Shown one piece after another: positions 522 through 29,713 of a stretch of 40,178 nucleotides of DNA. The notes under the pieces were generated by a model. It did not search any database, had not been told where the DNA came from, and saw only the letters and a program-made list of their open reading frames with translations. The stretch lies in sequence record SRR2962707_771; one strand, written 5' to 3'. The first letter of the stretch is position 1, and every line of letters begins with the position of its first letter. Position numbers and translations under genes: made by a program.

Positions 522-2429
522 ATGAGTCTATTGTCTTTAGAACAGGTCAGTGTTGCATTCGGGCATAATCCGCTGCTGTCAAAAATCAGTTTCGCTGCAG
601 AAGCAGGGGAACGTGTTGCTATTATCGGGCGCAATGGCGCGGGTAAATCAACGCTCTTAAAAATCATTTCAGGTGAACAAGTCGCTGATGAAGGTGTGGT
701 TCGTTTGGAGGGAGGAATGCGCATTGCCCAGCTTCCTCAAGAGCTTCCTGATGCCAACAATAAGACGGTTCGTGAAGTGGTCAGTGAAGGCGCTGGTAAA
801 GCCCATGACCTAATGAAACGTTACTTTGCCTTGTTGGAAGATTTCGAAAACGATCATTCTAATGAGTTAGGCGACATTCAAAGTGAGCTGGATAAGATCC
901 AAGGTTGGGATCTTGAACAACGCGTAAATCACATGATTCAACGCTTGAAGCTGCCGGCTGAAAAGCTCATGTCTGAATTGTCTGGTGGCTGGCGTCGTCG
1001 TGTTATTTTGGCGCAAGCATTGGTATCAAACCCAGATGTATTGCTGCTTGATGAGCCGACAAACCATTTGGATGTGCCGACCATCGAATGGATGGAGCAA
1101 CAGCTTCAGCAATTTCGTGGGTTGATCTTATTTATTACCCATGACCGTCGTTTCCTAGAAAAATTAGCGAACCGTATTATTGAGTTAGACCGTGGTAACT
1201 TGATTTCCTTTAGTGGCAACATTAATGAATTCCTTGTCTTTAAAGAAAAGATGTTGGAAGAAGAAGAACGTGCCAATGCCTTGTTTGATAAGCGCCTTGC
1301 TGAAGAAGAAGTTTGGATTCGTCAAGGTATCAAAGCCCGCCGTACTCGTAACGAAGGCCGTGTGCGCGCTTTGAAAGCGTTGCGTGTTGAGCGTTCAGAA
1401 CGGATTAATCGTCAAGGCAACGCCAAAATGGCCATTGAGACCAAAGAAAGCTCAGGCAAATTGGTGGCAGAGTTCACTCAAGTGGCTCACTCGTTCGAAG
1501 ACAAAGTGATTCTTCAGCCAATGGACTTGATAGTGAATCGCGGTGACCGTATTGGCCTTATCGGCCCCAATGGTTGTGGTAAAAGTACCTTCTTAAAAAT
1601 CCTCTTGGGTGATTTGCAAGCGGATTCAGGTACCGTTCGCCAAGGTACTAAGCTTAACGTTGCTTATTTTGACCAGCTTCGTGAACAGCTTGACCCCGAG
1701 CAAACCGTTGCTGAAAACGTTGGTGAAGGCAAAGAAACCATCGAAATCAATGGCCAGAACAAACACGTCATTGGCTACCTTGGTGATTTCTTATTCCCAC
1801 CAGAGCGTGCTCGTACGCCAGTCAAAGCCTTGTCTGGTGGTGAGCGAAACCGTGTGTTGCTTGCCAAGCTGTTTACCAAGCCTGCCAACCTGTTGGTGAT
1901 GGATGAGCCTACCAATGACCTCGATGTGGAAACCTTGGAGTTATTGGAAGAATTATTGCTGAACTACGACGGCACCTTGCTGCTAGTAAGCCATGACCGT
2001 GCGTTCTTGGACAGCGTAGTGACCAGTGTGATTGCGTTTGAAGGGGAAGGTCGCGTGCGTGAATACGTAGGTGGCTACCAAGATTGGATTCGTCAAGGGG
2101 GTAAGTTCCCAACCGAATCGACGTCTCAAACTAACGAGACTAAGCCCGCTAAAATTGAAGTGAAGAAAGCCGCGGAGACGGTCGTAACCGCAAAGCCTAA
2201 GTCAAAGCTGAGTTATAAAATACAGCGTGAATTTGATCTTATGCCAGAAACGATTGCGGCATTAGAGCATGACATTGCGGCTTTGCATCAAATTACGAGT
2301 GCAGCTGATTTTTATGCCGGCGACGCTAAACAGGTTCAAAAAACCTTAGCCAAAGTGGCCGCGAAAGAACAAGAACTTGAGACGACCATGGAGCGTTGGC
2401 TTGAGTTAGAAGAAATGCAGAATGGGTAA
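522..2429 (+). CDS. uup: ABC-F family ATPase Uup
   Basis: Two ABC cassettes (GRNGAGKS/LSGGW/LLLDEPTNHLD and GPNGCGKS/LSGGE/MDEPTNDLD), the Uup-typical linker EEVWIRQGIKARRTRNEGRVRALK, a C-terminal KLSYK coiled coil and no TM segments. Confidence 0.93.
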   Translation: MSLLSLEQVSVAFGHNPLLSKISFAAEAGERVAIIGRNGAGKSTLLKIISGEQVADEGVVRLEGGMRIAQLPQELPDANNKTVREVVSEGAGKAHDLMKRYFALLEDFENDHSNELGDIQSELDKIQGWDLEQRVNHMIQRLKLPAEKLMSELSGGWRRRVILAQALVSNPDVLLLDEPTNHLDVPTIEWMEQQLQQFRGLILFITHDRRFLEKLANRIIELDRGNLISFSGNINEFLVFKEKMLEEEERANALFDKRLAEEEVWIRQGIKARRTRNEGRVRALKALRVERSERINRQGNAKMAIETKESSGKLVAEFTQVAHSFEDKVILQPMDLIVNRGDRIGLIGPNGCGKSTFLKILLGDLQADSGTVRQGTKLNVAYFDQLREQLDPEQTVAENVGEGKETIEINGQNKHVIGYLGDFLFPPERARTPVKALSGGERNRVLLAKLFTKPANLLVMDEPTNDLDVETLELLEELLLNYDGTLLLVSHDRAFLDSVVTSVIAFEGEGRVREYVGGYQDWIRQGGKFPTESTSQTNETKPAKIEVKKAAETVVTAKPKSKLSYKIQREFDLMPETIAALEHDIAALHQITSAADFYAGDAKQVQKTLAKVAAKEQELETTMERWLELEEMQNG

Positions 2430-2432
2430 GTT

Positions 2433-3026
2433 ATGAGCCAGAAAATTACATCAATGTCTTTTATTCCGCGCTTTTTTGGCGCGTTTGGACAGTTTTTCAA
2501 ATACATGGGCAGTGGCGATTACGCGGCCCGTTGTTCCGCAGTAGGCAAAGGCGAAGTATTGGCTTTTGAGGCGGAGCCAAAGGTAATAACCAAAGAAATT
2601 GAAGTCATTCGTGAAGTTGAAGTGGCGGCACCAGTCCTGGACACAGTCAATGAAGATGGGGCGCATCAATTGCTGCAACTGTTGCAACATGAGGCGCGTT
2701 TTATCGACTTTATTCAAGAAAGTATCGATGGTTACGACGACGCGGATGTGGGTGCTGCTGCACGCCAAATTCATGCAGGTTGTGCGAAAGTGATCAAGCA
2801 GCACTTCACCATTGATGTGGTGAACAGTGCGCCAGAAAACAGCCGCATTGAGGTGCCAGCAGACTACGATGCCAAGCAAATTAAGCTAGAAGGTCGTGTT
2901 GAGGGCGTCGGTCCTTATGCCGGTACCTTGATTCATCCAGGTTGGAAAGTGACGAGCACACAGCTCCCTAAAGTCAGCTCCACCGATAACTTAACCATCC
3001 TAGCGCCCGCAGAAATCGAGGTATAG
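2433..3026 (+). CDS. DUF2760 family protein (C-terminus GrpE-like, inferred)
   Basis: Motifs AHQLLQLLQHEARFIDF, DADVGAAAR and GTLIHPGW...LAPAEIEV, recognised as DUF2760. Starts 3 bp after the uup stop and ends 2 bp before the Hsp70 gene. Confidence 0.85.
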   Translation: MSQKITSMSFIPRFFGAFGQFFKYMGSGDYAARCSAVGKGEVLAFEAEPKVITKEIEVIREVEVAAPVLDTVNEDGAHQLLQLLQHEARFIDFIQESIDGYDDADVGAAARQIHAGCAKVIKQHFTIDVVNSAPENSRIEVPADYDAKQIKLEGRVEGVGPYAGTLIHPGWKVTSTQLPKVSSTDNLTILAPAEIEV

Positions 3027-3028
3027 TC

Positions 3029-4783
3029 ATGAGCGATTATTTTATTGGTATCGACCTAGGTACCACGCATTCGGCTGTCTTTTATTCTGCAGCCAACACT
3101 GAAAATGGCGCGGCAGACATTAAACAGTTGCCTATTGCGCAGTTCACCGCGGCAGGGCAAGTGGCAGAACGTCCACTGTTGCCTTCTTTTGTGTATTTCC
3201 CCCATGCCACTGAGTTTTTAGAAAGTGATATGCAATTGCCGTGGGGCAAAGCCGATGCGATTGTCGGGCAACTTGCGAGAGAGTTGGGTGCCAAATCGTC
3301 TGGTCGTTTGGTGCAAAGTGCTAAAAGCTGGTTGTGTCACTCTCGAGTGGGCGCAGACGAAGCTGTTTTGCCAATCGATGCGCTGGAAGAGGTAGCAAAA
3401 ATCTCGCCCGCAGCGGTCACTGAAACCTTGCTCTCTCATTTGGTGAACGCATGGACAGTGGCGTTTCCTGATGCGCCGATACAGGATCAAGAAGTGGTGA
3501 TTACTGTGCCTGCCTCATTTGATCCGGCGGCGCGTACTATCACCGAACAAGCGGCGAAGCGCATCGGGTTGCGAGCCCGTTTGATTGAAGAGCCATTAGC
3601 GGCGTTTTACGCTTGGCTGGCAGATCAAGCGTCTTGGACGGATGCACTTGACGTGAACGAACATATCCTGGTTGTGGATGTGGGCGGTGGTACAACAGAC
3701 TTGTCTTTGATCCAAGCGGTTGAGCAAGAGGGCGTACTTGGTTTGGAGCGTGTTGCTGTGGGTCGTCATATCCTATTGGGTGGCGACAACATGGACATGG
3801 CATTGACCTATCACCTAGCTGGACAGCTTGCACAAAACGGTACAACGTTAGAGCATTGGCAGATTTCAGGTCTGACGCAAGCGTGTCGTGAGGCGAAAGA
3901 GCGCTTGTTGTCGAATGCGGATTTGGCCGACGTGAGTGTTGTCGTTCCAAGTCGTGGTCGCAGTTTGTTTAATAACAGCATTAAAGCGACCTTGACTCAA
4001 GGCGACGTTCAGCAGCTTTTGTTGCAAGGCTTTTTCCCTGAAGTGGCGTTTGGTGAGCAGGCTCAGAAAGCCCCACGAAGCGGCATCAGTACGATCAACT
4101 TGGATTACGAAAGTGATCCTGCCATTACGCGTCATATTAGTGAGTTTTTAGCCCAACATCAGGCTAAGCCAACGAAAATTTTGCTGAATGGTGGTGTGTT
4201 TAACGCCGGTTTAATTCGAACCACCATTGAAACGCGCCTGCGTGCCATGTTGGGCGATGTTGACATGACCATGTTGACGCCATCGCATCTGGATCACGCC
4301 GTTGCGAAAGGAGCAACGTATTACGCTGTGGTGCAAGCCGAAGGCGGCGTAAAAGTGAAAAGTGGCTTGGCGGCGAATTATTACATTGGTGTGGCGAGCC
4401 CAATGCCCGCGATTCCAGGCATGGCACCACCGGTTGACGCCGTTTGTGTGGCGCCGTTTGGGTTAGAAGAAGGCTCTGAAGAGCAAATGTTACCCAACGA
4501 ATTTTCCTTGGTGGTTGGCGAATCGGTGACCTTTCGTTTCTTCCAGTCTCAAGACAGTCAGGTCGATTCCGTAGGAAAAGTGATTTCTTCGTTTGCCTTG
4601 GCCCAATTGACTGAGCTGAATCCTATTAGTGTGCAGCTAGATGCAGGGCACTACCAAGAAGGCGAGATGGTTCGTGTGTATTTGACTGCTCGGGTGACTG
4701 AGCTCGGGTTGTTGCTGTTGCAAGCGCACGATACAAAATCAGACCTACATTGGACGATTGAGTTTCAAGTTAGGGAGGCGTAA
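3029..4783 (+). CDS. Hsp70/DnaK-related protein (short, no helical lid)
   Basis: GIDLGTTHS, ITVPASFD, EEPLAA, VDVGGGTTDLS, LLGGDNMD, NGG and AVAKGA match the Hsp70 nucleotide-binding-domain motifs. The protein ends after an SBD-beta-like segment. Confidence 0.9.
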   Translation: MSDYFIGIDLGTTHSAVFYSAANTENGAADIKQLPIAQFTAAGQVAERPLLPSFVYFPHATEFLESDMQLPWGKADAIVGQLARELGAKSSGRLVQSAKSWLCHSRVGADEAVLPIDALEEVAKISPAAVTETLLSHLVNAWTVAFPDAPIQDQEVVITVPASFDPAARTITEQAAKRIGLRARLIEEPLAAFYAWLADQASWTDALDVNEHILVVDVGGGTTDLSLIQAVEQEGVLGLERVAVGRHILLGGDNMDMALTYHLAGQLAQNGTTLEHWQISGLTQACREAKERLLSNADLADVSVVVPSRGRSLFNNSIKATLTQGDVQQLLLQGFFPEVAFGEQAQKAPRSGISTINLDYESDPAITRHISEFLAQHQAKPTKILLNGGVFNAGLIRTTIETRLRAMLGDVDMTMLTPSHLDHAVAKGATYYAVVQAEGGVKVKSGLAANYYIGVASPMPAIPGMAPPVDAVCVAPFGLEEGSEEQMLPNEFSLVVGESVTFRFFQSQDSQVDSVGKVISSFALAQLTELNPISVQLDAGHYQEGEMVRVYLTARVTELGLLLLQAHDTKSDLHWTIEFQVREA

Positions 4784-7494
4784 TGCCAGAATCAGCTTTT
4801 CGAGTAGGCATTGATTTAGGAACAACCAACAGCGTTGTTTCTTACTTATCGAACGAAGGCAGTGAACCGACTCTATTGCCGATTCCACAAGTGATGGCGG
4901 ATGGTTCGGTGCAAGAGTTTACCTACTTGCCCAGCGCCATTTATTTGTTGGCGGCGGATGAAAAGTTGGACCCGGTATTGCCTTGGCGTAATGGCGACAA
5001 AACGCGCATTGTGGGGCTCGGTGCATTAGCACTCGGCCAACGCCGTGCTGGGCAGTTAGTGCAAAGTGCGAAAAGCTGGTTGAGTCACCGCCAAGTGGAT
5101 CGGCGTTCTGCGATTCTTCCTTGGGCCAGCGAATTTGCCAAAAAAATGAGCCCTCTGGACGCCAGTCAAGCCTTGCTTATGCACATTAAGCAAAGCTGGA
5201 ATCATCGTTTCCCCAATGCCCCGCTTGAGAAGCAAAGCGTCGCACTCACGTTACCGGCGTCGTTTGATGAAGAAGCCCGTGCGTTAACGCTTGAAGCGGC
5301 AAAAAACGCAGGACTAGAAGACCTTTATCTTCTCGAAGAGCCGCAAGCGGCCTGTTATCACTACATTAGTGATGATGAAAAATTGGCGGCGCTCGCCAGC
5401 AAAAAAATGTTGCTCGTGGTGGACATTGGCGGCGGTACCAGCGATTTTAGTTTGGTGTCTATTCAACCGGCTTCTAGTGAAAAGAAAAGTGTCTCACTGA
5501 AGCGAGTGGCGGTTGGTGAGCACCTGTTATTAGGGGGCGATAACTTGGATCAAGCGTTAGCGTTTCAGCTTGACCCAAAACAAATATCGGCTCTGTCTGC
5601 GACCCGTTTAGCGGCCTTAGTGCAGCAAACTCGTCAAGCGAAAGAGACACTCCTGAGCGAGGCTTCTCCCGACAGTGTGAACATTACGGTATTGGGTGGT
5701 GGCAGCCGTTTGATTGGCGGCTCACAGAAATTTTCCGTGTCACGGGATGCGTTATTGGAGCAAGTTCGCACAGGATTTTTTCCTTTAATAGACCCCGACA
5801 CCAAGGTGCAAAAAAGCGACTATGCAATGCATACGCTTGGCTTGCCTTATGAATCAGACCCTGCCTTTACGCGTCATCTTGCGGCCTTTTTAACCACCCA
5901 TCAAGAGGCCATTTTACGTGCCACGGGCAGCACCATGCCAGACGCTGTGTTGTTTAACGGTGGCTTATTTAACAGCCCTTTGTTAAAGGCACAACTGTTG
6001 GCGCAATTAAACACCTGGTCTGAAATACCGATACTGGCCTGCGCGGCGGACGAGCCTAATGATGCGGTAGCAAAAGGCGCCGCCTTATATCTCAGTGCGT
6101 TAGCGGGCGAAAGCACGCGGATTGAAAGCGGCGTGGCTCATGGCTTATTCCTTAAAGTCGGTGACGAGCAGTTTGTTGGTATCTTGCCAAAAGGCACTTT
6201 AAAAGGGGAAACCCTCACCCTAGAACAAGACTTTTTTGTCACCTTAGGGCAGCAAGTACAATTTCCTCTGTACCGCTCGGATGATCACATTGATTGTGTG
6301 GTGGGGCAGGTGCGCGAGCAGACTGGTTTGCACTACATTTCTACCTTGTCGACTGAGTTGGATGCCTCCGTTGATGCAACAGAAACAGCGGTCAATGTCG
6401 CAGTACAAATGACGGAAGTTGGGGTCTTGCAAGTGACCTTAAAAGCGACGAATCAGCGCGATCAATGGCATTTAGACTTTTCTATTAAAGAGTCGACGCA
6501 AGCCGCGTCAGGACAAACCTCAGCAGACCAAAAAGAGCAAGATCAGGCTGGTTTACTGCACGCCAATATGGGGCAAGCGGAAGAGCATTTGACCAAGTGT
6601 TTTTCTAGCGCAGGCCAAAAGCAAGCCCCCGATTTGGTGAAGGCCTTAAAACAAGATTTGGATGCCATGCTGGGCAATCGAGACGATTGGAATTTGGCAA
6701 CGTCACGACGTTTGGTCGACAAACTGCTCAGTTTGAAATCAGGGCGTATGAAAAGCGCCCAGCACGAGCGTCAATGGCTACAGCTTATGGGGTATTGCTT
6801 ACGACCAGGCTATGGCGCTGAGGACGATCTTGCCCGTGTGCAGCAGGTGATCAATATCACCAAAGCAGGCACGCAGCACGATGCCGCGGCAGTATGGGGG
6901 CAATACTGGACTATGTATCGTCGTATTGCTGGTGGCTTGTCTTTTGAGCAACAAACGGTACTGTTTAAGCAGTTTAGTCAGTTCTATTCACCTTCAGGTC
7001 AACGCTCTCGTGAAAAAATGAAGGCGTTAACGACACGCTCCAGTGACGATCTAATCCGTCTTGTGGGGGCGCTGGAGAAACTAGAGCAGGCGGATAAAAT
7101 GACGACGATCGATTGGTTGTTAAAACGCCTGTCTAAATCTTCAGAGCCGGATACCGCTTGGTGGACGCTAGGGCGCATTGCATCGCGTCACTTATTGTGT
7201 GGTGAGCAAGCTCTGCGAATTCCTGAAGACACGCTTTACCCAATATTGGATGTGGTGCTTAAAGAAGATTGGAAAAAACGCAAGCAAGCAGGCCTTGCCG
7301 CGGTGCTCATGGCTCAGGTGAGTCTGGAAGAGTCGGATAAGCTCAAAGCATATCGACATAAAATTGCGAAAAAACTACTCAAAGACAAATGCCCGGCGCA
7401 ATGGTTAGCACGCCTTAACAGTCAAATTGAAATCAATAACGATGAGCTTACTGCTTTAGTCGGTGAGAGCTTGCCTATTGGTTTGCGCTTATAA
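4783..7494 (+). CDS. Hsp70/DnaK-related protein with C-terminal DUF3731-type domain
   Basis: GIDLGTTNS, LTLPASFD, EEPQAA, VDIGGGTSDFS, LLGGDNLD; C-terminal ~310 aa with LRPGYG and YRRIAGG motifs. TAATG overlap with the upstream gene. Confidence 0.9.
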   Translation: MPESAFRVGIDLGTTNSVVSYLSNEGSEPTLLPIPQVMADGSVQEFTYLPSAIYLLAADEKLDPVLPWRNGDKTRIVGLGALALGQRRAGQLVQSAKSWLSHRQVDRRSAILPWASEFAKKMSPLDASQALLMHIKQSWNHRFPNAPLEKQSVALTLPASFDEEARALTLEAAKNAGLEDLYLLEEPQAACYHYISDDEKLAALASKKMLLVVDIGGGTSDFSLVSIQPASSEKKSVSLKRVAVGEHLLLGGDNLDQALAFQLDPKQISALSATRLAALVQQTRQAKETLLSEASPDSVNITVLGGGSRLIGGSQKFSVSRDALLEQVRTGFFPLIDPDTKVQKSDYAMHTLGLPYESDPAFTRHLAAFLTTHQEAILRATGSTMPDAVLFNGGLFNSPLLKAQLLAQLNTWSEIPILACAADEPNDAVAKGAALYLSALAGESTRIESGVAHGLFLKVGDEQFVGILPKGTLKGETLTLEQDFFVTLGQQVQFPLYRSDDHIDCVVGQVREQTGLHYISTLSTELDASVDATETAVNVAVQMTEVGVLQVTLKATNQRDQWHLDFSIKESTQAASGQTSADQKEQDQAGLLHANMGQAEEHLTKCFSSAGQKQAPDLVKALKQDLDAMLGNRDDWNLATSRRLVDKLLSLKSGRMKSAQHERQWLQLMGYCLRPGYGAEDDLARVQQVINITKAGTQHDAAAVWGQYWTMYRRIAGGLSFEQQTVLFKQFSQFYSPSGQRSREKMKALTTRSSDDLIRLVGALEKLEQADKMTTIDWLLKRLSKSSEPDTAWWTLGRIASRHLLCGEQALRIPEDTLYPILDVVLKEDWKKRKQAGLAAVLMAQVSLEESDKLKAYRHKIAKKLLKDKCPAQWLARLNSQIEINNDELTALVGESLPIGLRL

Positions 7495-7539
7495 GGTGTG
7501 ATTGTGGTGGTTGCCAAAGGTATTGGGCGATGGGTGTTT

Positions 7540-7578
7540 AAAAAAGAGCCAAGTAACCTGTTACTGGCTCTTTTTTTT
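7540..7578. terminator. Bidirectional intrinsic terminator
   Basis: AAAAAAGAGCCAAGTAAC-CT-GTTACTGGCTCTTTTTTTT between the convergent Hsp70 and lipase genes. Confidence 0.85.
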
Positions 7579-7625
7579 ATGGGCAAAATCAGCACAAAGA
7601 GTGCTTTGTCGCTGAATGACGATTT

Positions 7626-8495
7626 TTAATCGAAGGAAAACCCAAACAAACTAATGTCGGTTTTATAAGGTACTTCGACTGGGCTTTCCAGCAAACCATT
7701 AATTAGACCGAGGTAGGTCGTCATTTTATGGGCGTTGAGGTTTTGTTCGTTAGGGATGGATGTGGTGAACTTGGTTGCTCTTAGCGCACTTTTGACACCA
7801 CTGGTTTCGGCGTATTGCTTGTTGCCCATGAGTATGACTTCTTTGCCCATGTGCCAGAAAATATCCAAATCTTTGATTTGTAATGGGCTAATAGGGGGAA
7901 CAAGAGGAACAATGTCGTGTAGGGTGACGACGCGGATAAGTGGTAAATCATCGAATTTTTTTGCCCCAGTTACATTGGTGACCTTAGGTTGCCCAAACGT
8001 AATGATCTGAGCCACTGGATAACCATCTTTTTGCAAGTACATGCCCAATATCACGGCAATGGCGCCGCCTAAACTGTGTCCGGTAATATGAATGGGTTGG
8101 TCTTTGTTTAGATAAGGCTTCATGTTGCTGTAAATGGCTCTCGCCGCGGACGCAAAACCTTGGTGCAGTTTAATGTCCAGCACCGGATCTGGTTGCAAGG
8201 AAACGGTTAAATCCACCATGGCATTTTGTAGGTTGGCGGTGCCGCGCACAGCAATGGTCTGAACGCCATTGGCGGTGCTTAAAAAATAACTTACTTGGGA
8301 CGCAGGGATCAAAGATTGGTGCACGAGCTGCTGGTTTTGCTCTTGCAGTCGTTGCTCAAGCGTTGCGGCTTCAAGGTAGGTGTCGTCGGAGAGCTTGGCT
8401 TGGGCTTTGATGAGGTTAAAATCTTGTGCGGCAAAAGCGGATTGAAATGGACTGATGAGCAGAACAAGAATGAATAAAATAAAAGCATTAAACAT
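7626..8495 (-). CDS. Secreted class 3 lipase
   Basis: Signal peptide (...FQSAFA|AQ), VRGT, LHQGF, nucleophile elbow ITGHSLGG, TFGQPKV, DIVPLVP and a C-terminal His (AHKM). Confidence 0.9.
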   Translation of the reverse strand: MFNAFILFILVLLISPFQSAFAAQDFNLIKAQAKLSDDTYLEAATLEQRLQEQNQQLVHQSLIPASQVSYFLSTANGVQTIAVRGTANLQNAMVDLTVSLQPDPVLDIKLHQGFASAARAIYSNMKPYLNKDQPIHITGHSLGGAIAVILGMYLQKDGYPVAQIITFGQPKVTNVTGAKKFDDLPLIRVVTLHDIVPLVPPISPLQIKDLDIFWHMGKEVILMGNKQYAETSGVKSALRATKFTTSIPNEQNLNAHKMTTYLGLINGLLESPVEVPYKTDISLFGFSFD

Positions 8496-8613
8496 TGTGA
8501 GGCAGCTAACTTATTGGTTGAAGAGCGCAGAGAGTACTAAAAAAAGGCTTTTACGAACAGCGGTTTATCCGATTGTAAGGGCGTTTTTACCCTTGTTCAT
8601 ATGGGGTGGGGGG

Positions 8614-8657
8614 CTAAAAACCTTGATCCTTCTTTAGCGGTTGATCAAGGTTTTTAG
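8614..8657 (-). terminator. Intrinsic terminator of the ParB-like gene
   Basis: 15-bp inverted repeat CTAAAAACCTTGATC...GATCAAGGTTTTTAG, 18 bp after the stop codon. Confidence 0.7.
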
Positions 8658-8674
8658 GGCGCTGATGATTTATC

Positions 8675-9592
8675 TTATAAGCTGTTTTTATATGCCAGCA
8701 TATAAGTGACTTTCCCTTTTTTAGCATTAAAGAGTTTGGTCAGGCCTTTTTGGTTAAATGACTCAAACTGTCCCATTTCTTTGGCTGTTTTTCCTGAGCC
8801 ACCAATATTGTCGCTCTTCATATTTAAAAGGTAATGGCTGACGTCTGTGATGGCTTGGCGGTACCCTTTGGCGGAAGTTAAGTCATAACGATTTAGATCA
8901 ATGCCTTTGCGAACTTCCTTAGACCAATAGAACTCAAGAAAGGGCACGGGATTTTTAGGTTTGTCCCAGCCCACATTACGGGAGTAGTACATCACAGAGC
9001 GGTATTTATCATTTTCAAAATTAGCCATGCCCAGAGACGTCGGCAGCTGCTGATAAGTAATAGTGTGCCCTGTGCTGTTTTGTAGCCAAGTATTACCGTC
9101 TTTCACCATGGCTTTCCAAAATGCTGTCATGGTGGGCAATGCACGATAATCTTTGGCAACAACGACCTTGACCTTAAATTGCTTGCCGCCATTACGCATC
9201 TGCCAGAAGGCGTTAAAAGTATGGTGCCCATCGGTAAGATAATATTGGCCATTGGGTGCAATCACTATGGTCTTCATGGCTTGCTTTTCTGTGCCCACGG
9301 CCTCATCACATTGAAAGCTGCTAGGAATGTTTGGCATAGAGCCGGTATTAAAATGTGAGACACCTTTTTGGCCATTTGCCTCACAGATTTCATCAAATTG
9401 TTTCTTAGGGTCCGCTTGAAATCGTCCTAATTTGTAATAGACCTGATCGTACCCTATAGCAGGTTGAGTTGGGTGCAACTCACCCAGTGTCACAGTGGTA
9501 ATGCTACCTACTTCTAACTCGTTAGCGTTAACCAAAGAGGAGATGAGTAGAAGTAACGACAAAAATGGCAGCATGAGTGTTTTGGGTATCAT
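8675..9592 (-). CDS. ParB/sulfiredoxin-fold protein (ParB-like nuclease family) with signal peptide
   Basis: ELHPTQPAIG, YYLTDGHHT and PFLEFYW motifs; hydrophobic N-terminus ending VNA|NE; SD AAGGA. Confidence 0.75.
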   Translation of the reverse strand: MIPKTLMLPFLSLLLLISSLVNANELEVGSITTVTLGELHPTQPAIGYDQVYYKLGRFQADPKKQFDEICEANGQKGVSHFNTGSMPNIPSSFQCDEAVGTEKQAMKTIVIAPNGQYYLTDGHHTFNAFWQMRNGGKQFKVKVVVAKDYRALPTMTAFWKAMVKDGNTWLQNSTGHTITYQQLPTSLGMANFENDKYRSVMYYSRNVGWDKPKNPVPFLEFYWSKEVRKGIDLNRYDLTSAKGYRQAITDVSHYLLNMKSDNIGGSGKTAKEMGQFESFNQKGLTKLFNAKKGKVTYMLAYKNSL

Positions 9593-22146: not shown

Positions 22147-24528
22147 TTAGGCCTGCCATTCTTGCTGATAAAAGCGTTCGATGGTTTGGTCTTGCCAGTA
22201 AAAAAGAGACAGCCAGTCGTTGTCGATGAGTTGCCTTACTGTCTCATGTTTGGCGACTATGTCTGCAATGGCGCTTTTAGGGGCGGAAATATAGACGGCT
22301 AATCTGACCGGTGTGTGCATCCAATTTTTACCGTCGCTGATAGATTGCATGGGCAAGCCAATGCGCAAATCCCCGCCGTTGCCTTCAAAAACGCCAATAT
22401 TGCCGCCGACGGCATTGTGCAGCACTTTATTACCGCTACCGAACTTAAAGTGGTCGGTCACCGATAAGTTGTATTGCATATTGATCCAGTGGGCCACGAG
22501 CATTGGCGCGGTTAACAGGCGCTCTAAAATGCCAAAATCAGAATCGGTTTGATAATCGTAATCGTGTAAAAAACTGCGACCCTTTAAGTTGAGCTGACGA
22601 GTTTGTTGGCGTGGTGCGATGATAAAGGCATGGTTGTTGGCCAATCCCCATTCTGGGTTGACTTGAGACCAATCGTTCGCGCGTTTTATAAATGCTTTAT
22701 GGCGTTGCTTGTCCGATACATTGAGTAGGGAGGCATCGAGTTTCTTCGCTCGTTCTTTTTGTGTGCCGTACATGGCTTGTTCTAACCAATGGCTTTGTTG
22801 AGGCGTGGTTTGGTGGTCAAAGCAGGTGAGCTGATCCGTGGTGGTATTGTGCAGAGCCGCGACAAATGTTGTGTGCTGAGGGATCTTGATGCCCATGGTG
22901 TGTAAGCATGAGCGAACTTCTGCGTCGTTTAATAATCTGCTCAGTACTTTGACATTCACTTCACCGCTTTGCCCACCGCAGGCGCCGCACTCTAATCCAG
23001 CCGCATGCAGGTTGTTACTGGTATGGCTGCCATGACCAACCAAGAGCACGGTTTCTGCATAGTGCTTTATTCCCATGGTGTCTAATATGCCTTTAGCAAG
23101 CTTGGCTTTATCTTGTGTCGTTAATGGTTCGCCATTTTGGGTTATGTTCCACTGGGTGTTGGGCGCTAGTCTTGCCGCAGGGTTCGTTTGGCGCTTTGAA
23201 AACAGCGTTTGCTTGAACATTTTAAAGGCATACCACCAACCCATAGATTCGACCATTGAGAAAGTGGCTGGTGCAGAATGCCCCCAACGTTGCCAGCGGG
23301 CTTGTTGTTGCTCTTTTTGAGCGTGCTCAATATTAGTTTCGCATTCGCTTACTGTGATCGATGGCGATAATAAACCGGGTAACTGAGGCCTTGAGAAGGC
23401 GCTGTCTTTGGCTTTGTATTCGATGGGTAACCCAAAAAAGCCTGCAAACCCAAAGGTTTGTATGGCGTCATCTTGTTTCTCTAAAGCGCGTCTGATGACT
23501 TCGGAGCGAACATCGATGCAGAACACCGCCTGCAATACTGGCGGGCGTTGTTTTGTTAAGGGGTAGGATTGGGAGGTGAGCAGTGTATTGAGCTGTTTTT
23601 GCTCCGCATACTCTAAGGCCAAAGCCCAGATTTTTGCGCTCAGCAAGGCCTCTTTATGCTTGGCAATATGTTGTTCTATTGTCTGTTTTTGTTTTTCCCA
23701 CGCTTGTTTGATGGCGCTTGCCTGAGGGTTCTCTTGGGAGGTTAAGTAACGCCAGATGACCAGTTCCCACGCCATCTTAATCGCCAGCAACGACATTAAA
23801 TGATCTTCTTGGTCGTTGGGATTTTGCCAATGCAGATAAGCGAGATAACTGCTCCAGCCGTTAATGTCTAACAGTAAAGCATGGGCGTAGTAGGGCAAGG
23901 AGGCGTCATCCAGTGCCAATTCTTCAATGGCCAGCGCAAAGAGTTGATCCGTATTGTTTGGTAACGCGTTGAACAGATGAATTAGCTTAGGCTCATCAAG
24001 AACAATGCTCAATCCCTTGTCTTGCGTGGTAATGGTGAGCCAATGGGGGTATAGGTGTGTTTGATCATTACTGCTCATTTGTCTGAGTGTTGGGCTCACT
24101 TGCTGGTAATGATCGGCACAAAACTGACTCACTTGATGCGTGATTTCATCGTGCCACGACATTTTCGTCGCCGGCCTTTCTTGATCAGCTAAGTCGGCGA
24201 TGTTTTGCCATGGCGTCAGTGTTGGGGTTGGCTTAGAAAGCATTTCGATGAGCGATTCTGCTAATGCATCCACCGCATAATGTTGCGCGGCTTTGGTGAG
24301 CGACGCTTGATCAATGCGCCCCTGTTTAAACCAAGCGACATAGGTTTCTATCGGCAAATGGGCTTTGATCCCTGCGATGGCGGATAACTCAGCCGCCACA
24401 GTATCAAACGGCTTATCAATCAATGACCATAATGGATTAACGGCTATGAGTTTATCGAGAGGCCAGCTCGGGGCGATTTTTTTAGTGGCGGTCACTAATA
24501 GGCTTTTTTGCTGATTGTTCATAGTCAT
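22147..24528 (-). CDS. dabA: Inorganic carbon transporter subunit DabA (DUF2309/UPF0753, MpsB-like)
   Basis: IAPSWPL..IAVNP; Zn-ligand motifs FCIDVRSE, VGHGS and LECGACGG; HNTTTD, PEWGL, GRSFLHDY, TAPMLVAHWINMQY, GDLRIGLP. Confidence 0.92.
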   Translation of the reverse strand: MTMNNQQKSLLVTATKKIAPSWPLDKLIAVNPLWSLIDKPFDTVAAELSAIAGIKAHLPIETYVAWFKQGRIDQASLTKAAQHYAVDALAESLIEMLSKPTPTLTPWQNIADLADQERPATKMSWHDEITHQVSQFCADHYQQVSPTLRQMSSNDQTHLYPHWLTITTQDKGLSIVLDEPKLIHLFNALPNNTDQLFALAIEELALDDASLPYYAHALLLDINGWSSYLAYLHWQNPNDQEDHLMSLLAIKMAWELVIWRYLTSQENPQASAIKQAWEKQKQTIEQHIAKHKEALLSAKIWALALEYAEQKQLNTLLTSQSYPLTKQRPPVLQAVFCIDVRSEVIRRALEKQDDAIQTFGFAGFFGLPIEYKAKDSAFSRPQLPGLLSPSITVSECETNIEHAQKEQQQARWQRWGHSAPATFSMVESMGWWYAFKMFKQTLFSKRQTNPAARLAPNTQWNITQNGEPLTTQDKAKLAKGILDTMGIKHYAETVLLVGHGSHTSNNLHAAGLECGACGGQSGEVNVKVLSRLLNDAEVRSCLHTMGIKIPQHTTFVAALHNTTTDQLTCFDHQTTPQQSHWLEQAMYGTQKERAKKLDASLLNVSDKQRHKAFIKRANDWSQVNPEWGLANNHAFIIAPRQQTRQLNLKGRSFLHDYDYQTDSDFGILERLLTAPMLVAHWINMQYNLSVTDHFKFGSGNKVLHNAVGGNIGVFEGNGGDLRIGLPMQSISDGKNWMHTPVRLAVYISAPKSAIADIVAKHETVRQLIDNDWLSLFYWQDQTIERFYQQEWQA

Positions 24529-24537
24529 GCTAATTCC

Positions 24538-26145
24538 CTAAAAATGCTCAGGTAAGCTGAGGTCAGAAAACGACGTTGAGTGCTGTTCTTTGGCTCTTGC
24601 TGGTAAGTGAACGGGCCAGATTTTTAGCGCCGCACGGGTGACCCACTCGTCTAGGTACAAGCCCGCGAAAAGCGTCATAGAAAGGCGTCGTACGAATGGC
24701 CAATGAACTTGGTAGTGCAACAGAAGATGGGTCGCAAAGAGCAATGTAAATAAGCTCATTGCCCAGATGTCAGGGTAAGAAAATGCGCGAACCTGACCGG
24801 TTTCAGGAGGCAAGGCAAACCAGATGGCAGTCTTTAATGAGGCATAAATAAGCGTTAGCACTGCGCCGGTAATTAAGGTCGTTAACCATGATGCAGGGTG
24901 CTCAGAAGTGCGCCACTGAATAATCAAAATACTCAGTGCCAAGGCGAATAGCCACCAGGTGCTGAAGGCTGTTTCAAAATGAAAGGCAAAGCGTACTGCT
25001 ACGACACAAGCGGTGGCGATGGTGAGCGCTAAAAACCACTCTTTTAGCTTGGGTAAAGAAGGTGTCTTCGCGCTGTGTTTTGTCGGTGCTGAGAGAGCCA
25101 ACCGCAAATAATCGTTTACCGCATTGCCTGAGTTAAGGAAGGAATAGGCCTTGTAAAAAGAGTGAGCAAGCAAGTGCAACAGCACTAACTCATAAAGGCC
25201 GAGGGCAAATTCCAACAACATTAACCCCATTTGCGCGCTGGTTGACCACGCTAGGCGAACTTTAACGCTGATGCGCGTGGTCATCACCAAGCTGCTGGCA
25301 AGCGTGGACAGGCCCGCCACAATGAGTAATAGCCAAATGGCAGACAAGCTTTGGGACACAAGCGGGGTAAAGAGCAGCAACATATAGCCGCCTAAATTGA
25401 TCACCCCAGCATGAAGCAAAGCACTGACGGGGGTAGGGGATTCGACCACTTGAATGAGCCAGCCATGAAAAGGCAATTGGGCACATTTAATTAAGGCGGC
25501 AAAAGCAATCAAACAAGCGGCCAGTTGGTCTTGCCACGACAGCGCTTGCCCCATGCTCTCTTGCTGTGTCAAAGACGAAAGAATGCTGCTTATGTAGAAA
25601 CTTTGGTGTTGTTGGTAAAGGAGCATAAACGCAATGAACAGCGTCAGTTCGGCGATCCGCGCTAAGATGAATTTTTTATGAGCCGCTAAAATCGCACGAG
25701 GTCGATCAGGGAAAAAAGTCAGTAAGTTGTGCAGCGAGAGGCTAATGCACAGCCAGCCAAGCCAAAACAGCATAAGGTGGTTGGACATCACCGTCAGAGC
25801 CACAGAAGCAAGGGTAAACATAAGCCACCGGTAATAGCGGGCGCGATTGGCTTGTCCATTCATATACTGGCGTGAAAAGCGCAACAGTACCCAGCTCATC
25901 ACCACGATCAGCGCCAGCATAATCTGGCTAAGTACAGTGTGATGAAGAAGCGCATGGTCTTGCTTTGGTGTGGTTAAAAAGTAATGCACCCCTAGATTTA
26001 TGCCATAAAGAAAGAGCAAGCCTCGACTTAACCAAACGGCATTTTGTGGCACCGAGGTCGATTTTTCTCGACAGCCAAACCATCCGCACAGCACCAGCGC
26101 GAGAGGAATAAGAACAGGTAAAAAACTCCAAGTGACCACAGGCAC
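24538..26145 (-). CDS. dabB: Inorganic carbon transporter membrane subunit DabB (NuoL/ND5-like)
   Basis: KCAQLPFHGWL, ESPTPVSALLHAG, KVRLAWST.AQMG, HLLAHSFYKA; ends 9 bp before dabA; GTG start with GGAG SD. Confidence 0.9.
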   Translation of the reverse strand: MPVVTWSFLPVLIPLALVLCGWFGCREKSTSVPQNAVWLSRGLLFLYGINLGVHYFLTTPKQDHALLHHTVLSQIMLALIVVMSWVLLRFSRQYMNGQANRARYYRWLMFTLASVALTVMSNHLMLFWLGWLCISLSLHNLLTFFPDRPRAILAAHKKFILARIAELTLFIAFMLLYQQHQSFYISSILSSLTQQESMGQALSWQDQLAACLIAFAALIKCAQLPFHGWLIQVVESPTPVSALLHAGVINLGGYMLLLFTPLVSQSLSAIWLLLIVAGLSTLASSLVMTTRISVKVRLAWSTSAQMGLMLLEFALGLYELVLLHLLAHSFYKAYSFLNSGNAVNDYLRLALSAPTKHSAKTPSLPKLKEWFLALTIATACVVAVRFAFHFETAFSTWWLFALALSILIIQWRTSEHPASWLTTLITGAVLTLIYASLKTAIWFALPPETGQVRAFSYPDIWAMSLFTLLFATHLLLHYQVHWPFVRRLSMTLFAGLYLDEWVTRAALKIWPVHLPARAKEQHSTSFSDLSLPEHF

Positions 26146-27985: not shown

Positions 27986-29713
27986 TTAAGAATTAGTAGG
28001 AATTTGTTTGTAGCATTTCTTTACGCGCAAATAGATGGCCAAGCGCCATTTGGTCCAGCGTGGCGGCAATGCGTGGGCAAGCCAAAAAACAAACACAGGG
28101 AAAAACGCTTGCAGCAGCGCCATGCTGCCAACTTGTTTTCTGTCGCCAGAAGCGGCTTGTGCCACAGCTTCTGTAGTGAGTGTGCCATAGCGGCCTTCAC
28201 CGGCAATAAGGGTCGGTAAATATTGCGCGATACTAACGGAAAAACCGATGGCAAAGGCGGTCAGCAAGGCAGGTTTAAGCATGGCCAGTTTGATAAAAAA
28301 GTAATTGAACCAGGGGCGATTGTTTAAGCGATTGGCTTGCATTAGGTAATCTTCTTGGTACGCCAAATAAGGCCCTTTTAACGACAAATAAACGTAAGGC
28401 AAAACATACATTAAATGGAGTGCAATGATCGCTGTTAGGGTGCCATTGAGGTTGATCTGAATCAGCAGTACGTGCAAGCCAAACAAAAAGCCAATTTGAG
28501 GAAGCAAAATGGGCACATAGATAAGCCAATCAAAAGGGTGGTTTTTGGTCTGTTTGGTTAAGCGCTTTGTCTCTAGCATGAGTGCGCTCATCAGGCAGGC
28601 TATGAGGGTGGCGACCAGAGCGATGATCAGCGTATTACTAGACAGCTCCAGTAACACTGGGTATGCGCGTTCTATGTTGCTCAGGGTCCAACTGGACGGC
28701 AATACATCAGGAAAGCGCCAGCGTCGGGTGAGCGACCAAATGGGTAAAATGATTAAGGAAATAAACGCGCTTGATAAAGTGATTAGACCCAGAACAACGC
28801 CCAGACGTAAAAAATAATCGGTGAGGCCTGCGCGTTTACCATTGCTGCGTTCGGCTTTAGTAAGTCGCGTAAACAGGCAGTGGGCGAGTTCCCAGCCAAG
28901 CATCACCAGCGCAATGATAATCACAAGGGCAATGGCGCCAGCACTGGCAATAAAACGCGTCGATAAGGCAGGATCGTTAAACCAATGAAATAGGGTCACC
29001 GCCAGAGTCGATGGTGTATTAGGGCCGATAACAATCGCCAGATCGACGACGGTTAAGCTAAACGCAATGACGATAAAAATCGGCATGCGAATAATAGGGT
29101 AAAGCTGCGGTATTAATACTTTACGCCAAATGGTCAGGCGTTTATAACCAAGCGTTTGGCAGACCTCAAGGCTTTTTCTGGCGTCAATGGCGTGCAAACT
29201 GGCGAGCATAATAAAGAGCAAATACGGCATTTCTTTCATCACCAACGCGAAGATCAATGACACGCCATAAGGGTCTTGCACGGTAATCCAATTTGGCGGG
29301 CGGTCAAAGCCTGTTAACCAAGGGCTAAACAGTCGCATAAGCCAACCAGATGGGCTGAGTAGAAACAACAAACCTATGGCAATAGCAGCATGTGGAATGG
29401 CAAGAATGGGGGCGAGTAGCTTTTCAATTTTCTCGAAGAAGGCCCGTTGGTAGCCCCATGCCAGCAAAGACAAGGCTATCCACAGGGCAATAATGGGGGC
29501 AATAATGCCGGTGATCAGTGTCAGTTTTAGACTGGTGTAAAACTCATTGTTTTGAAACAGTTGTTCCCACGAGGTGAGGGAAAAGTGATATTCCCCTAAC
29601 GGTGGGAAGTAGTGAAACGCTGGCAGTAGTGTGCCGACCAGTCCAACAAGGACTGGGATGGCGAGAAATAAGGCAACCAACCAGGTGATAAATCGTACGC
29701 TTTTTAATGGCAT
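27986..29713 (-). CDS. ABC transporter permease (duplicated TM domain), YnjC-like
   Basis: LAIPHAAIAIG, LSPSGW, KEMPY, VVDLAIVIGP, WRFPDVLP, QYLPTL, TLTTEAV. Confidence 0.88.
   Translation of the reverse strand: MPLKSVRFITWLVALFLAIPVLVGLVGTLLPAFHYFPPLGEYHFSLTSWEQLFQNNEFYTSLKLTLITGIIAPIIALWIALSLLAWGYQRAFFEKIEKLLAPILAIPHAAIAIGLLFLLSPSGWLMRLFSPWLTGFDRPPNWITVQDPYGVSLIFALVMKEMPYLLFIMLASLHAIDARKSLEVCQTLGYKRLTIWRKVLIPQLYPIIRMPIFIVIAFSLTVVDLAIVIGPNTPSTLAVTLFHWFNDPALSTRFIASAGAIALVIIIALVMLGWELAHCLFTRLTKAERSNGKRAGLTDYFLRLGVVLGLITLSSAFISLIILPIWSLTRRWRFPDVLPSSWTLSNIERAYPVLLELSSNTLIIALVATLIACLMSALMLETKRLTKQTKNHPFDWLIYVPILLPQIGFLFGLHVLLIQINLNGTLTAIIALHLMYVLPYVYLSLKGPYLAYQEDYLMQANRLNNRPWFNYFFIKLAMLKPALLTAFAIGFSVSIAQYLPTLIAGEGRYGTLTTEAVAQAASGDRKQVGSMALLQAFFPVFVFWLAHALPPRWTKWRLAIYLRVKKCYKQIPTNS

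Follow-up and report, generated by a model that had tools for sequence, protein, structure and literature searches.

A conserved three-gene module

This work concerns a stretch of 40,178 nucleotides from sequence record SRR2962707_771, which we call the window, and within it three adjacent genes that form one conserved, self-contained, co-inherited module of Hsp70 derivatives. The first encodes a protein of the family DUF2760. The other two encode Hsp70-like ATPases that are paralogues of each other, and for these we have coined the names HspA (584 amino acids) and HspB (903 amino acids). HspB differs from HspA in carrying a C-terminal DUF3731 domain. The window is ordinary chromosome from a Marinomonas species; the best matches of its DUF2760 protein are all named Marinomonas. 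Questions about the whole genome were put to the nearest genome (G001), which has 83% of the window's sampled words in common with it.

An earlier sequence-only reading of this DNA proposed that the three genes are a self-contained unit, translationally coupled in two steps. Reading the junctions directly agrees with the coupling. DUF2760 gives way to HspA at TAG-tc-ATG, a gap of 2 bp, and HspA gives way to HspB at gcgTAATGcca, where stop and start overlap by one base. The window holds all three in the order DUF2760, HspA, HspB, on one strand and tightly spaced.

The case for a module depends on what happens in other genomes. We scanned for the locus with a DUF2760 alignment, taking one genome per species, and at least 574 genomes were confirmed out of 600 pattern matches. 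The neighbourhood counts that follow come from the best 80 of these DUF2760 loci, with subsets determined by how much downstream sequence is available. The 80 represent Gamma- and Betaproteobacteria, Myxococcota, a Lentisphaeria metagenome-assembled genome (MAG), a Desulfobulbus MAG and others. Where at least 700 bp of downstream sequence is available (79 loci), an HspA-type gene begins less than 400 bp past the end of DUF2760 at 78 loci, the sole exception being the lentisphaerial locus L067. Both open reading frames (ORFs) were called at 73 loci. There the two genes overlap by 4 bp in 32 cases and by 1 bp in 8, and 2-4 bp separate them in 16; the spacing is 5-60 bp in 4 others and longer in 2, and at 11 loci an over-extended longest ORF makes the junction uninformative. 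Translational coupling of DUF2760 to HspA is nearly universal.

Of the 64 loci that have at least 5.4 kb of downstream sequence, 55 have HspB with its DUF3731 domain further down the same strand. It adjoins HspA in 50 of these and is separated from it by inserts of 0.9-3.7 kb in 5. The script gave 49 and 6, and we reassigned one locus (L072) from insert to adjacent because its HspA is split between two frames. That split (L072:8594-10483) points to a frameshift in the MAG or a mistake in its assembly. At two betaproteobacterial loci the inserts hold YhcG-type PDDEXK nuclease genes (DUF1016; L064:10756-11829 and L066:11767-13194), and the insert at L027 includes an acyltransferase-family gene. 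Nine loci have no HspB nearby, and all 9 genomes carry PF12531, the DUF3731 family, elsewhere. The Lentisphaeria MAG (G010, with locus L067) has its three genes dispersed over contigs C9, C4 and distant sites, and all of them are kept. No other family recurs beside the module in the 80 loci; clustered flanking ORFs reach at most 9 loci and are confined to one lineage or another (uup, for example).

A second sample, an even selection of 201 genomes from the class, tells the same story. PF10816, the DUF2760 family, is found in 8 of the 201 genomes and PF12531 in 7, all 7 of them within the 8, and PF12531 is found in 0 of the 193 others. One positive, G047, is flagged as unpublished. We believe the linkage counts and the lack of any other recurring neighbour family bear out the proposal of a self-contained unit. 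The genes do co-occur, whether one counts adjacent HspA (78/79 loci), downstream HspB (55/64 loci) or DUF2760 carriers that also have DUF3731 (7 of 8).

The operon in Marinomonas

The features of the locus are collected in Table 1. To the earlier reading we add uup, which ends just upstream of the module (TAA-gtt-ATG, with the uup stop 3 bp ahead of the DUF2760 ATG), making a string of four plus-strand ORFs in Marinomonas that run head to tail as uup, DUF2760, HspA and HspB. No promoter-like site is listed between the uup stop and the DUF2760 start, and all 8 Marinomonas loci have uup as the gene just ahead of DUF2760. Given the 3-bp spacing, the lack of a listed promoter and this adjacency, the Marinomonas triad is probably transcribed together with uup. 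The same arrangement is seen in 0 of the 72 other loci, so the linkage to uup is lineage-specific and lies outside the conserved module. We considered a link to the ribosome through uup and ruled it out, since the adjacency is confined to Marinomonas.

Table 1. Features of the module and its immediate surroundings in the window
Feature	Position	Strand	Basis
uup, ABC-F ATPase	522..2429	+	NCBIfam NF050005 Uup, 872 bits, just below the cut-off of 900
DUF2760 protein, 197 amino acids	2433..3026	+	PF10816
HspA, 584-residue lidless Hsp70-like ATPase	3029..4783	+	PF00012
HspA-specific beta-domain insertion, containing proline and cysteine	residues about 456-484, window 4394-4480	+	absent from HspB
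HspB, 903-residue paralogue with DUF3731 tail	4783..7494	+	PF00012 and PF12531
HspB nucleotide-binding domain, predicted	residues 1-440, nt 4783-6102	+	AF2 model
HspB beta domain, predicted	residues 455-566, nt 6145-6480	+	AF2 model
HspB disordered linker, predicted	residues 568-590	+	AF2 model
HspB all-helical tail containing DUF3731, predicted	residues 596-893, nt 6568-7461	+	AF2 model
HspB extreme C-terminal motif GESLPxGLxL	residues 894-903, window 7462-7491	+	44-sequence alignment
Intrinsic terminator, hairpin followed by U8	7536..7585	+	RNA fold
Lipase-family gene, convergent	7626-8495		Pfam

The sequence-only reading also had a single strong terminator closing the operon, and this has held up. 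The hairpin past HspB has a folding energy of -17.8 kcal/mol and a z-score of -3.4, only 1 of 200 shuffles folds equally well, and eight U follow it on the 3' side. A simple consensus terminator scan overlooked this hairpin on account of a one-base bulge. There is an A-run on its 5' side, so the terminator could also serve the convergent lipase gene.

RNA-library contigs (from at most three samples of one study, at 95% identity or more) cover parts of uup, DUF2760, HspA and HspB, and they run across the boundaries between genes at 2429/2433 and 4783. We take this as a weak hint of expression, since DNA may be present in such libraries and the contigs cannot prove a transcript. Positions 7606-8700 have no RNA-contig cover in the same runs, and nothing is concluded from this gap.

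HspA and HspB are diverged Hsp70 paralogues

Both ATPases are members of the Hsp70 family PF00012 (73.9 bits for HspA and 59.9 bits for HspB, against a cut-off of 20.6). HspB is in addition a member of PF12531, that is DUF3731 or 'DNA-K related protein', which occupies residues 658-903, C-terminal to the Hsp70 ATPase part (246.1 bits against a cut-off of 25). Neither protein is DnaK proper; they score 60-68 bits where the cut-offs are 648 and 822.55 (TIGR02350 and NF001413). Neither is HscA, for which they score 81-91 bits against cut-offs of 620 and 708.55 (TIGR01991 and NF003520). The best NCBIfam match of HspA is nonetheless HscA, at 91 bits against the cut-off of 620.

HspA and HspB are 35% identical over 598 columns (E 2e-90). 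The sequence-only reading called them paralogues from four shared motifs, all of which are visible in this alignment. It also held that both keep the ATPase residues of DnaK, and here too our alignments agree. A profile of 52 HspA sequences was aligned to E. coli DnaK (1dkg_D). HspA residues D9, K99, E188, D217 and T222 fall on DnaK D8, K70, E171, D194 and T199 and are invariant in the 52 HspA sequences, and the HspB equivalents, D11, K97, E186, D214 and T219, show no variation among 44 HspB sequences.

We built a tree from the 52 HspA sequences and the N-terminal parts of the 44 HspB sequences with two outgroups, DnaK and a YegD-like protein; an MreB row was left out. HspA forms one clade with support of 0.95, and HspA and HspB together stand apart from DnaK and the YegD-like protein, again with support of 0.95. 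HspB forms one clade in the topology. Since the tree gives an HspA clade and an HspB clade, it places the A/B duplication before the spread of the sampled lineages.

The canonical Hsp70 architecture, in which the helical lid of the substrate-binding domain (SBD-alpha) follows the beta domain, is found in neither protein. HspA consists of a nucleotide-binding domain and a beta domain and is too short to hold a helical lid as well; it stops at residue 584, immediately past the region aligned to the HspB beta domain. This is judged from the alignment with HspB, as no model of HspA was made. For HspB we have an AlphaFold2 (AF2) model with a mean predicted local distance difference test (pLDDT) score of 81.6. 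In place of a lid the model has a disordered linker and then an unrelated helical domain. A protein-atlas search with residues 596-903 of this tail gave no usable match, and a permissive Pfam scan (E up to 5) of the HspB tail and the HspA beta domain turned up no further family.

The last ten residues of HspB are a motif of their own. G894, L897, P898, G900 and L901 are invariant in the 44 HspB C-termini, and the region has low pLDDT and is flexible in the model. This motif resembles a hydrophobic peptide on a tether, of a kind that could sit in the beta domain of an Hsp70. HspA has a peculiarity too, an insertion in its beta domain in which P460, A461, P463, G464, C473, A475, P476, G478, E481 and G482 are invariant. 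The interdomain linker has diverged in both proteins, to a GVRIRGG-like consensus in HspA. The HspA column at DnaK R167 is variable, and the position of DnaK N170 is an invariant Glu. Judged by mean column identity, conservation is highest in HspA (55% in 52 sequences), followed by HspB (46% in 44) and DUF2760 (28% in 75).

The DUF2760 protein

The product of the first gene is a member of PF10816 over residues 75-196, with 161.3 bits against a cut-off of 25, and PF10816 is also the only family that a permissive Pfam scan (E up to 5) returns for it. In its AF2 model (mean pLDDT 85.5) confident N-terminal helices at residues 10-38, which are amphipathic, are followed by a poorly predicted linker at about 40-72. 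Then comes a conserved alpha/beta domain at 74-176, predicted as a helical hairpin (74-124) packed on four short strands (125-176), and last an extended tail that ends in ...APAEIEV. Across 75 sequences 18 columns are invariant. A profile search of 1.84 billion cluster representatives (E <= 0.001) found 2,197 DUF2760 clusters at 50% identity.

The N-terminus of the protein is clearly hydrophobic in 24 of the 75 homologues (19-residue Kyte-Doolittle average of 1.6 or more), and most of the others have an aromatic amphipathic motif of the FFxRxxLAFGxFF type, which in Marinomonas reads FIPRFFGAFGQFF. We read both forms as putative membrane anchors, and DUF2760 is probably membrane-bound, as its predicted N-terminal helix and hydropathy suggest. 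At the other end, A-E-V/I-E-L/V is the very C-terminus in 58 of the 75 sequences; in the remaining 17 roughly one more residue follows it.

In the PDB, Foldseek found nothing similar to DUF2760 at E <= 0.001. VIA-align against 48,161 chains reached a best Z of 5.2 with generic helical hairpins only, which is not convincing, and GrpE is absent from its 50 rows. The sequence-only reading gave the machine an exchange factor of its own, a part for which DUF2760 is at most a candidate, as neither Pfam nor these fold searches liken it to GrpE; the heterodimer of the two Hsp70s that it thought probable is likewise putative. A complex prediction for HspA with DUF2760 scored 0.29 in both runs where the mark is 0.34; it was run without controls or supplied alignments and is neutral on binding.

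J-proteins and GrpE

The sequence-only reading stated that there is no J-domain gene, and this is correct for the window and for the neighbourhood of the module. The five J-domains of the nearest genome, searched against the window by tblastn, gave nothing better than E 0.34, and Pfam scans of the 27 window ORFs found no J-domain. No J-domain or GrpE-like gene recurs beside the module across the 80 loci. As far as a linked J-domain co-chaperone goes, this is not a canonical Hsp70 system. The statement does not carry over to the genome as a whole, because the nearest genome has five J-domain genes elsewhere, along with DnaK. It also encodes a YegD-like protein.

Distribution and genomic setting

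The module is near-core in Marinomonas and sparse at the level of the class, where about 4% of the sampled genomes have it. Of 64 Marinomonas species genomes 57 have PF12531, or 55 of the 61 of high quality, with one match in each. HspB proteins of Verrucomicrobiota, one of them named Pedosphaera parvula, are 67-68% identical to one from Myxococcota, which suggests that the module has been transferred between phyla. The GC content of the triad is about 0.50, and that of its surroundings is 0.42-0.49. From the inter-phylum identity and the raised GC we consider an old horizontal transfer likely, a pattern unlike that of a variable defence island.

The other genes of the window are housekeeping genes: EF-P, YaeQ, DabA/DabB, chemoreceptors, a UvrD-type helicase and transporters. 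We ruled out that the module is cargo of a mobile element or plasmid, as the window's other genes are ordinary chromosomal ones. Two further observations concern the minus strand. A DabA/DabB-type inorganic carbon transporter pair (22147-26145) lies beside a divergent LysR regulator gene. A 575-residue ORF (27986-29713) matches no Pfam family at E <= 1e-5 and lies between genes for an ABC ATPase and a solute-binding protein; it is probably the permease of the adjoining transporter.

Defence systems were looked up in PADLOC-DB v2. No model there matches DUF2760. Both ATPases match the candidate PDC-M61B with about 30 bits and E about 4e-8 over roughly 90-115 residues of the shared ATPase core, and the module is not among the known defence systems of that database.

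Published leads

The sequence-only reading knew of no assigned function for these families. It is true that no mechanism has been published, and a full-text literature search found no paper that names DUF2760 or DUF3731, and nothing on this gene set in the literature on Hsp70-type anti-phage operons. However, there are reports on a knockout of a probable orthologue and on a regulator of the operon in Vibrio, so the families are not without published leads.

A 2026 review, in the portions we cite, describes the bacterial DnaK derivates as unexplored 'dark matter', suggests that some of them act on DnaK as Hsp110 does, and states that they never occur without a bona fide DnaK (PMC13580251). In excerpts from their 2021 paper, Pan et al. 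describe M. xanthus MXAN_5323 as a 925-residue 'cd10170' Hsp70 whose deletion lowers sporulation and oxidative resistance and leaves motility and predation normal; they also report that it fails to rescue an E. coli dnaK mutant (PMC8265645). A PF12531 protein of 925 residues is present in M. xanthus, and because the lengths agree MXAN_5323 (WP_011555288.1) is probably this protein.

In Vibrio cholerae, according to the passages cited here, HapR binds the promoter of VC1375 and activates it both in vivo and in vitro (PMC10328515). VC1373-1375 ('DnaK-related protein') is also a match in a screen for genes repressed within biofilms, again as excerpted (PMC9201469). The exact 22-nt HapR site occurs in 2 of 285 Vibrio genomes, and in one of the two a DUF2760-HspA-HspB triad follows about 0.4-0.6 kb downstream of the site. 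That position ties the published HapR regulation to the module described here.

Mechanism and alternatives

The strength of the linkage, the conservation and the predicted architecture lead us to favour, tentatively, a membrane-tethered machine derived from Hsp70, in which DUF2760 would be a membrane anchor and the dedicated partner of HspA, the two ATPases would act as exchange factors for one another, and DUF3731 would be a platform. DUF2760 would be a dedicated partner that takes the place of a targeting co-chaperone. Its N-terminus, amphipathic here and a hydrophobic helix in other lineages, would hold the protein at the inner membrane face, and its alpha/beta domain and free acidic tail would engage HspA. 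HspA and HspB would pair in the manner of Hsp70 and Hsp110, each helping the other through its nucleotide cycle by contacts between the nucleotide-binding domains. The helical DUF3731 tail of HspB may be a scaffold or a platform for clients. The flexible, conserved C-terminal peptides of DUF2760 and HspB are candidate docking ligands for the two lidless beta domains. The module most likely serves specialised proteostasis in cells that are at high density, in stationary phase or developing, or oxidatively stressed, rather than bulk folding or phage defence; the HapR link in Vibrio and the knockout phenotypes in Myxococcus point to this physiology.

A bolder version of this mechanism can be stated. 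The membrane-tethered pair of Hsp70s would work independently of J-proteins, the tails AEVEL (of DUF2760) and ESLPxGLxL (of HspB) would be tethered pseudo-substrates, and exchange would be of the Hsp70/Hsp110 kind. We think it unlikely that all of this is right. If it is, assembly and cycling through tethered pseudo-substrates would be a bacterial counterpart of EEVD-type tail recognition, and DUF2760 would be a new class of co-chaperone.

Several observations weigh against the mechanism we favour or against its bolder version. One gammaproteobacterial genome that is 97% complete (G127) has DUF2760 and HspA and no detectable HspB; at its locus (L097, G127:C2:30000-44000) the two genes are followed by genes on the opposite strand. 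HspB cannot therefore be needed in every case. That genome retains the DUF2760 tail (...APAEVEL), unlike what one would expect of a tail that solely binds HspB. Independence from J-proteins is no more than putative; the nearest genome has five J-domain genes and a DnaK elsewhere. The membrane association of DUF2760 is a prediction, founded solely on hydropathy and a predicted helix, and the support for HspB as one clade is weak at 0.21. The M. xanthus phenotype is mild and, in the excerpted text, common to deletions of three unrelated non-canonical Hsp70s (PMC8265645), and the protein concerned is a probable, not a proven, PF12531 protein.

The same two ATPases could serve DnaK instead of each other. 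HspA, HspB or both might be Hsp110-like exchange factors or disaggregation enhancers for DnaK, touching it through the nucleotide-binding domains and relying on the DnaJ and GrpE of the genome, with DUF2760 doing nothing beyond localising them. The nearest genome has DnaK and five J-proteins, and the 2026 review, as excerpted, proposes just this for DnaK derivates and has them always accompanied by a bona fide DnaK (PMC13580251). The linkage of the module points the other way. The two paralogues stay together nearly everywhere, along with a dedicated third gene, and this suggests that the paralogues are partners of one another. The DnaK R167 column, R167 being what we take to be a J-domain contact, is not conserved in HspA, and N170 is replaced by an invariant Glu. 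The long M. xanthus protein, moreover, is reported in the cited excerpt not to rescue E. coli dnaK (PMC8265645). On balance we regard helpers of DnaK as a rather improbable explanation. A reading with still less in its favour drops chaperone activity altogether and makes the module a machine of the acetate and sugar kinase/Hsc70/actin (ASKHA) superfamily that remodels or scaffolds something at the membrane, like FtsA, MreB or PilM. Weak MreB and BeeR matches on the ATPase core, the predicted membrane-binding helix on DUF2760, the missing lid and the diverged interdomain linker would all fit such a machine. We nevertheless hold it to be quite unlikely, because by far the strongest similarity is to Hsp70, DnaK and HscA, and because in both proteins a beta domain still occupies, after the ATPase, the place of the substrate-binding domain of Hsp70.

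The sequence-only reading had left room for anti-phage defence, and this part of it has been weakened. In such a conflict system the Hsp70-like ATPases would act as sensor or effector. The patchy distribution in the class (8/201 genomes), the transfer suggested by inter-phylum HspB identity of 67-68%, the triad GC of about 0.50 against 0.42-0.49 around it, the weak PADLOC match to PDC-M61B and the YhcG-type nuclease genes within the operon at two loci can all be read that way. However, the PADLOC match is limited to those roughly 90-115 residues of a generic ATPase core and DUF2760 has no model at all. The module is single-copy and near-core in its genus (57/64 Marinomonas genomes), at a fixed housekeeping locus that is the same uup-adjacent site in 8/8 loci. 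The window is a housekeeping one, no defence family recurs beside the module in the 80 loci, and Pfam scans found no nuclease, protease, pore or NADase effector domain. We consider a defence function very improbable.

Comparison with known systems

M. xanthus MXAN_5323 and V. cholerae VC1375-VC1373 agree with the module in Pfam architecture and length and are probable orthologous modules, so far known from phenotype and regulation only. The other useful comparisons are with Hsp70 systems whose workings have been described.

Like DnaK in the DnaK-DnaJ-GrpE system, HspA and HspB have an ATPase fold with all the catalytic residues and a beta domain after it. Unlike DnaK they have no lid and a diverged linker, and they score 66-68 bits where DnaK cut-offs are 648-822. 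The module has a linked DUF2760 and a second paralogue where one might look for a linked J-protein or GrpE, neither of which it has. The HscA-HscB and HscC systems of E. coli resemble the module in being built on specialised Hsp70 paralogues with shortened lids, and HscA is the best NCBIfam match. HspA and HspB nevertheless fall below the HscA cut-offs (81-91 against 620-708 bits). HscA-HscB and HscC each use a J-protein, according to the cited portion of the review (PMC13580251), whereas the neighbourhood of the module has none.

The Hsp70-Hsp110 pair, as the same excerpted source describes it, also brings together two diverged ATPases of the Hsp70 fold, one of them longer and with an altered C-terminal part (PMC13580251). 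By analogy, reciprocal nucleotide exchange is a plausible model for HspA and HspB. The homology evidence goes no further than the shared Hsp70 fold, and the pairing of HspA with HspB is putative. The extension of HspB is also different in kind: it is a separate helical DUF3731 domain past a disordered linker and not an enlarged substrate-binding domain.

In yeast, Ssb and Ssz1 are two Hsp70s, one of them atypical and truncated, that work with Zuotin, a ribosome-bound J-protein that anchors them. The resemblance is in the plan of three parts, two Hsp70s and an anchoring partner that fixes the site of action. Unlike Zuotin, DUF2760 has no HPD motif and does have a predicted membrane helix. The ribosome-associated ABC-F gene uup adjoins the module in Marinomonas only.

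Descriptions of Hsp70 normally present its work as inseparable from that of J-proteins and exchange factors. The module has been kept across several phyla, always without linked J and GrpE genes and with DUF2760 instead. We believe this makes it a concrete, testable case of how an Hsp70 engine can be rewired, and the study of such DnaK-derivate systems is what the 2026 review, in the portion cited, asks for (PMC13580251).

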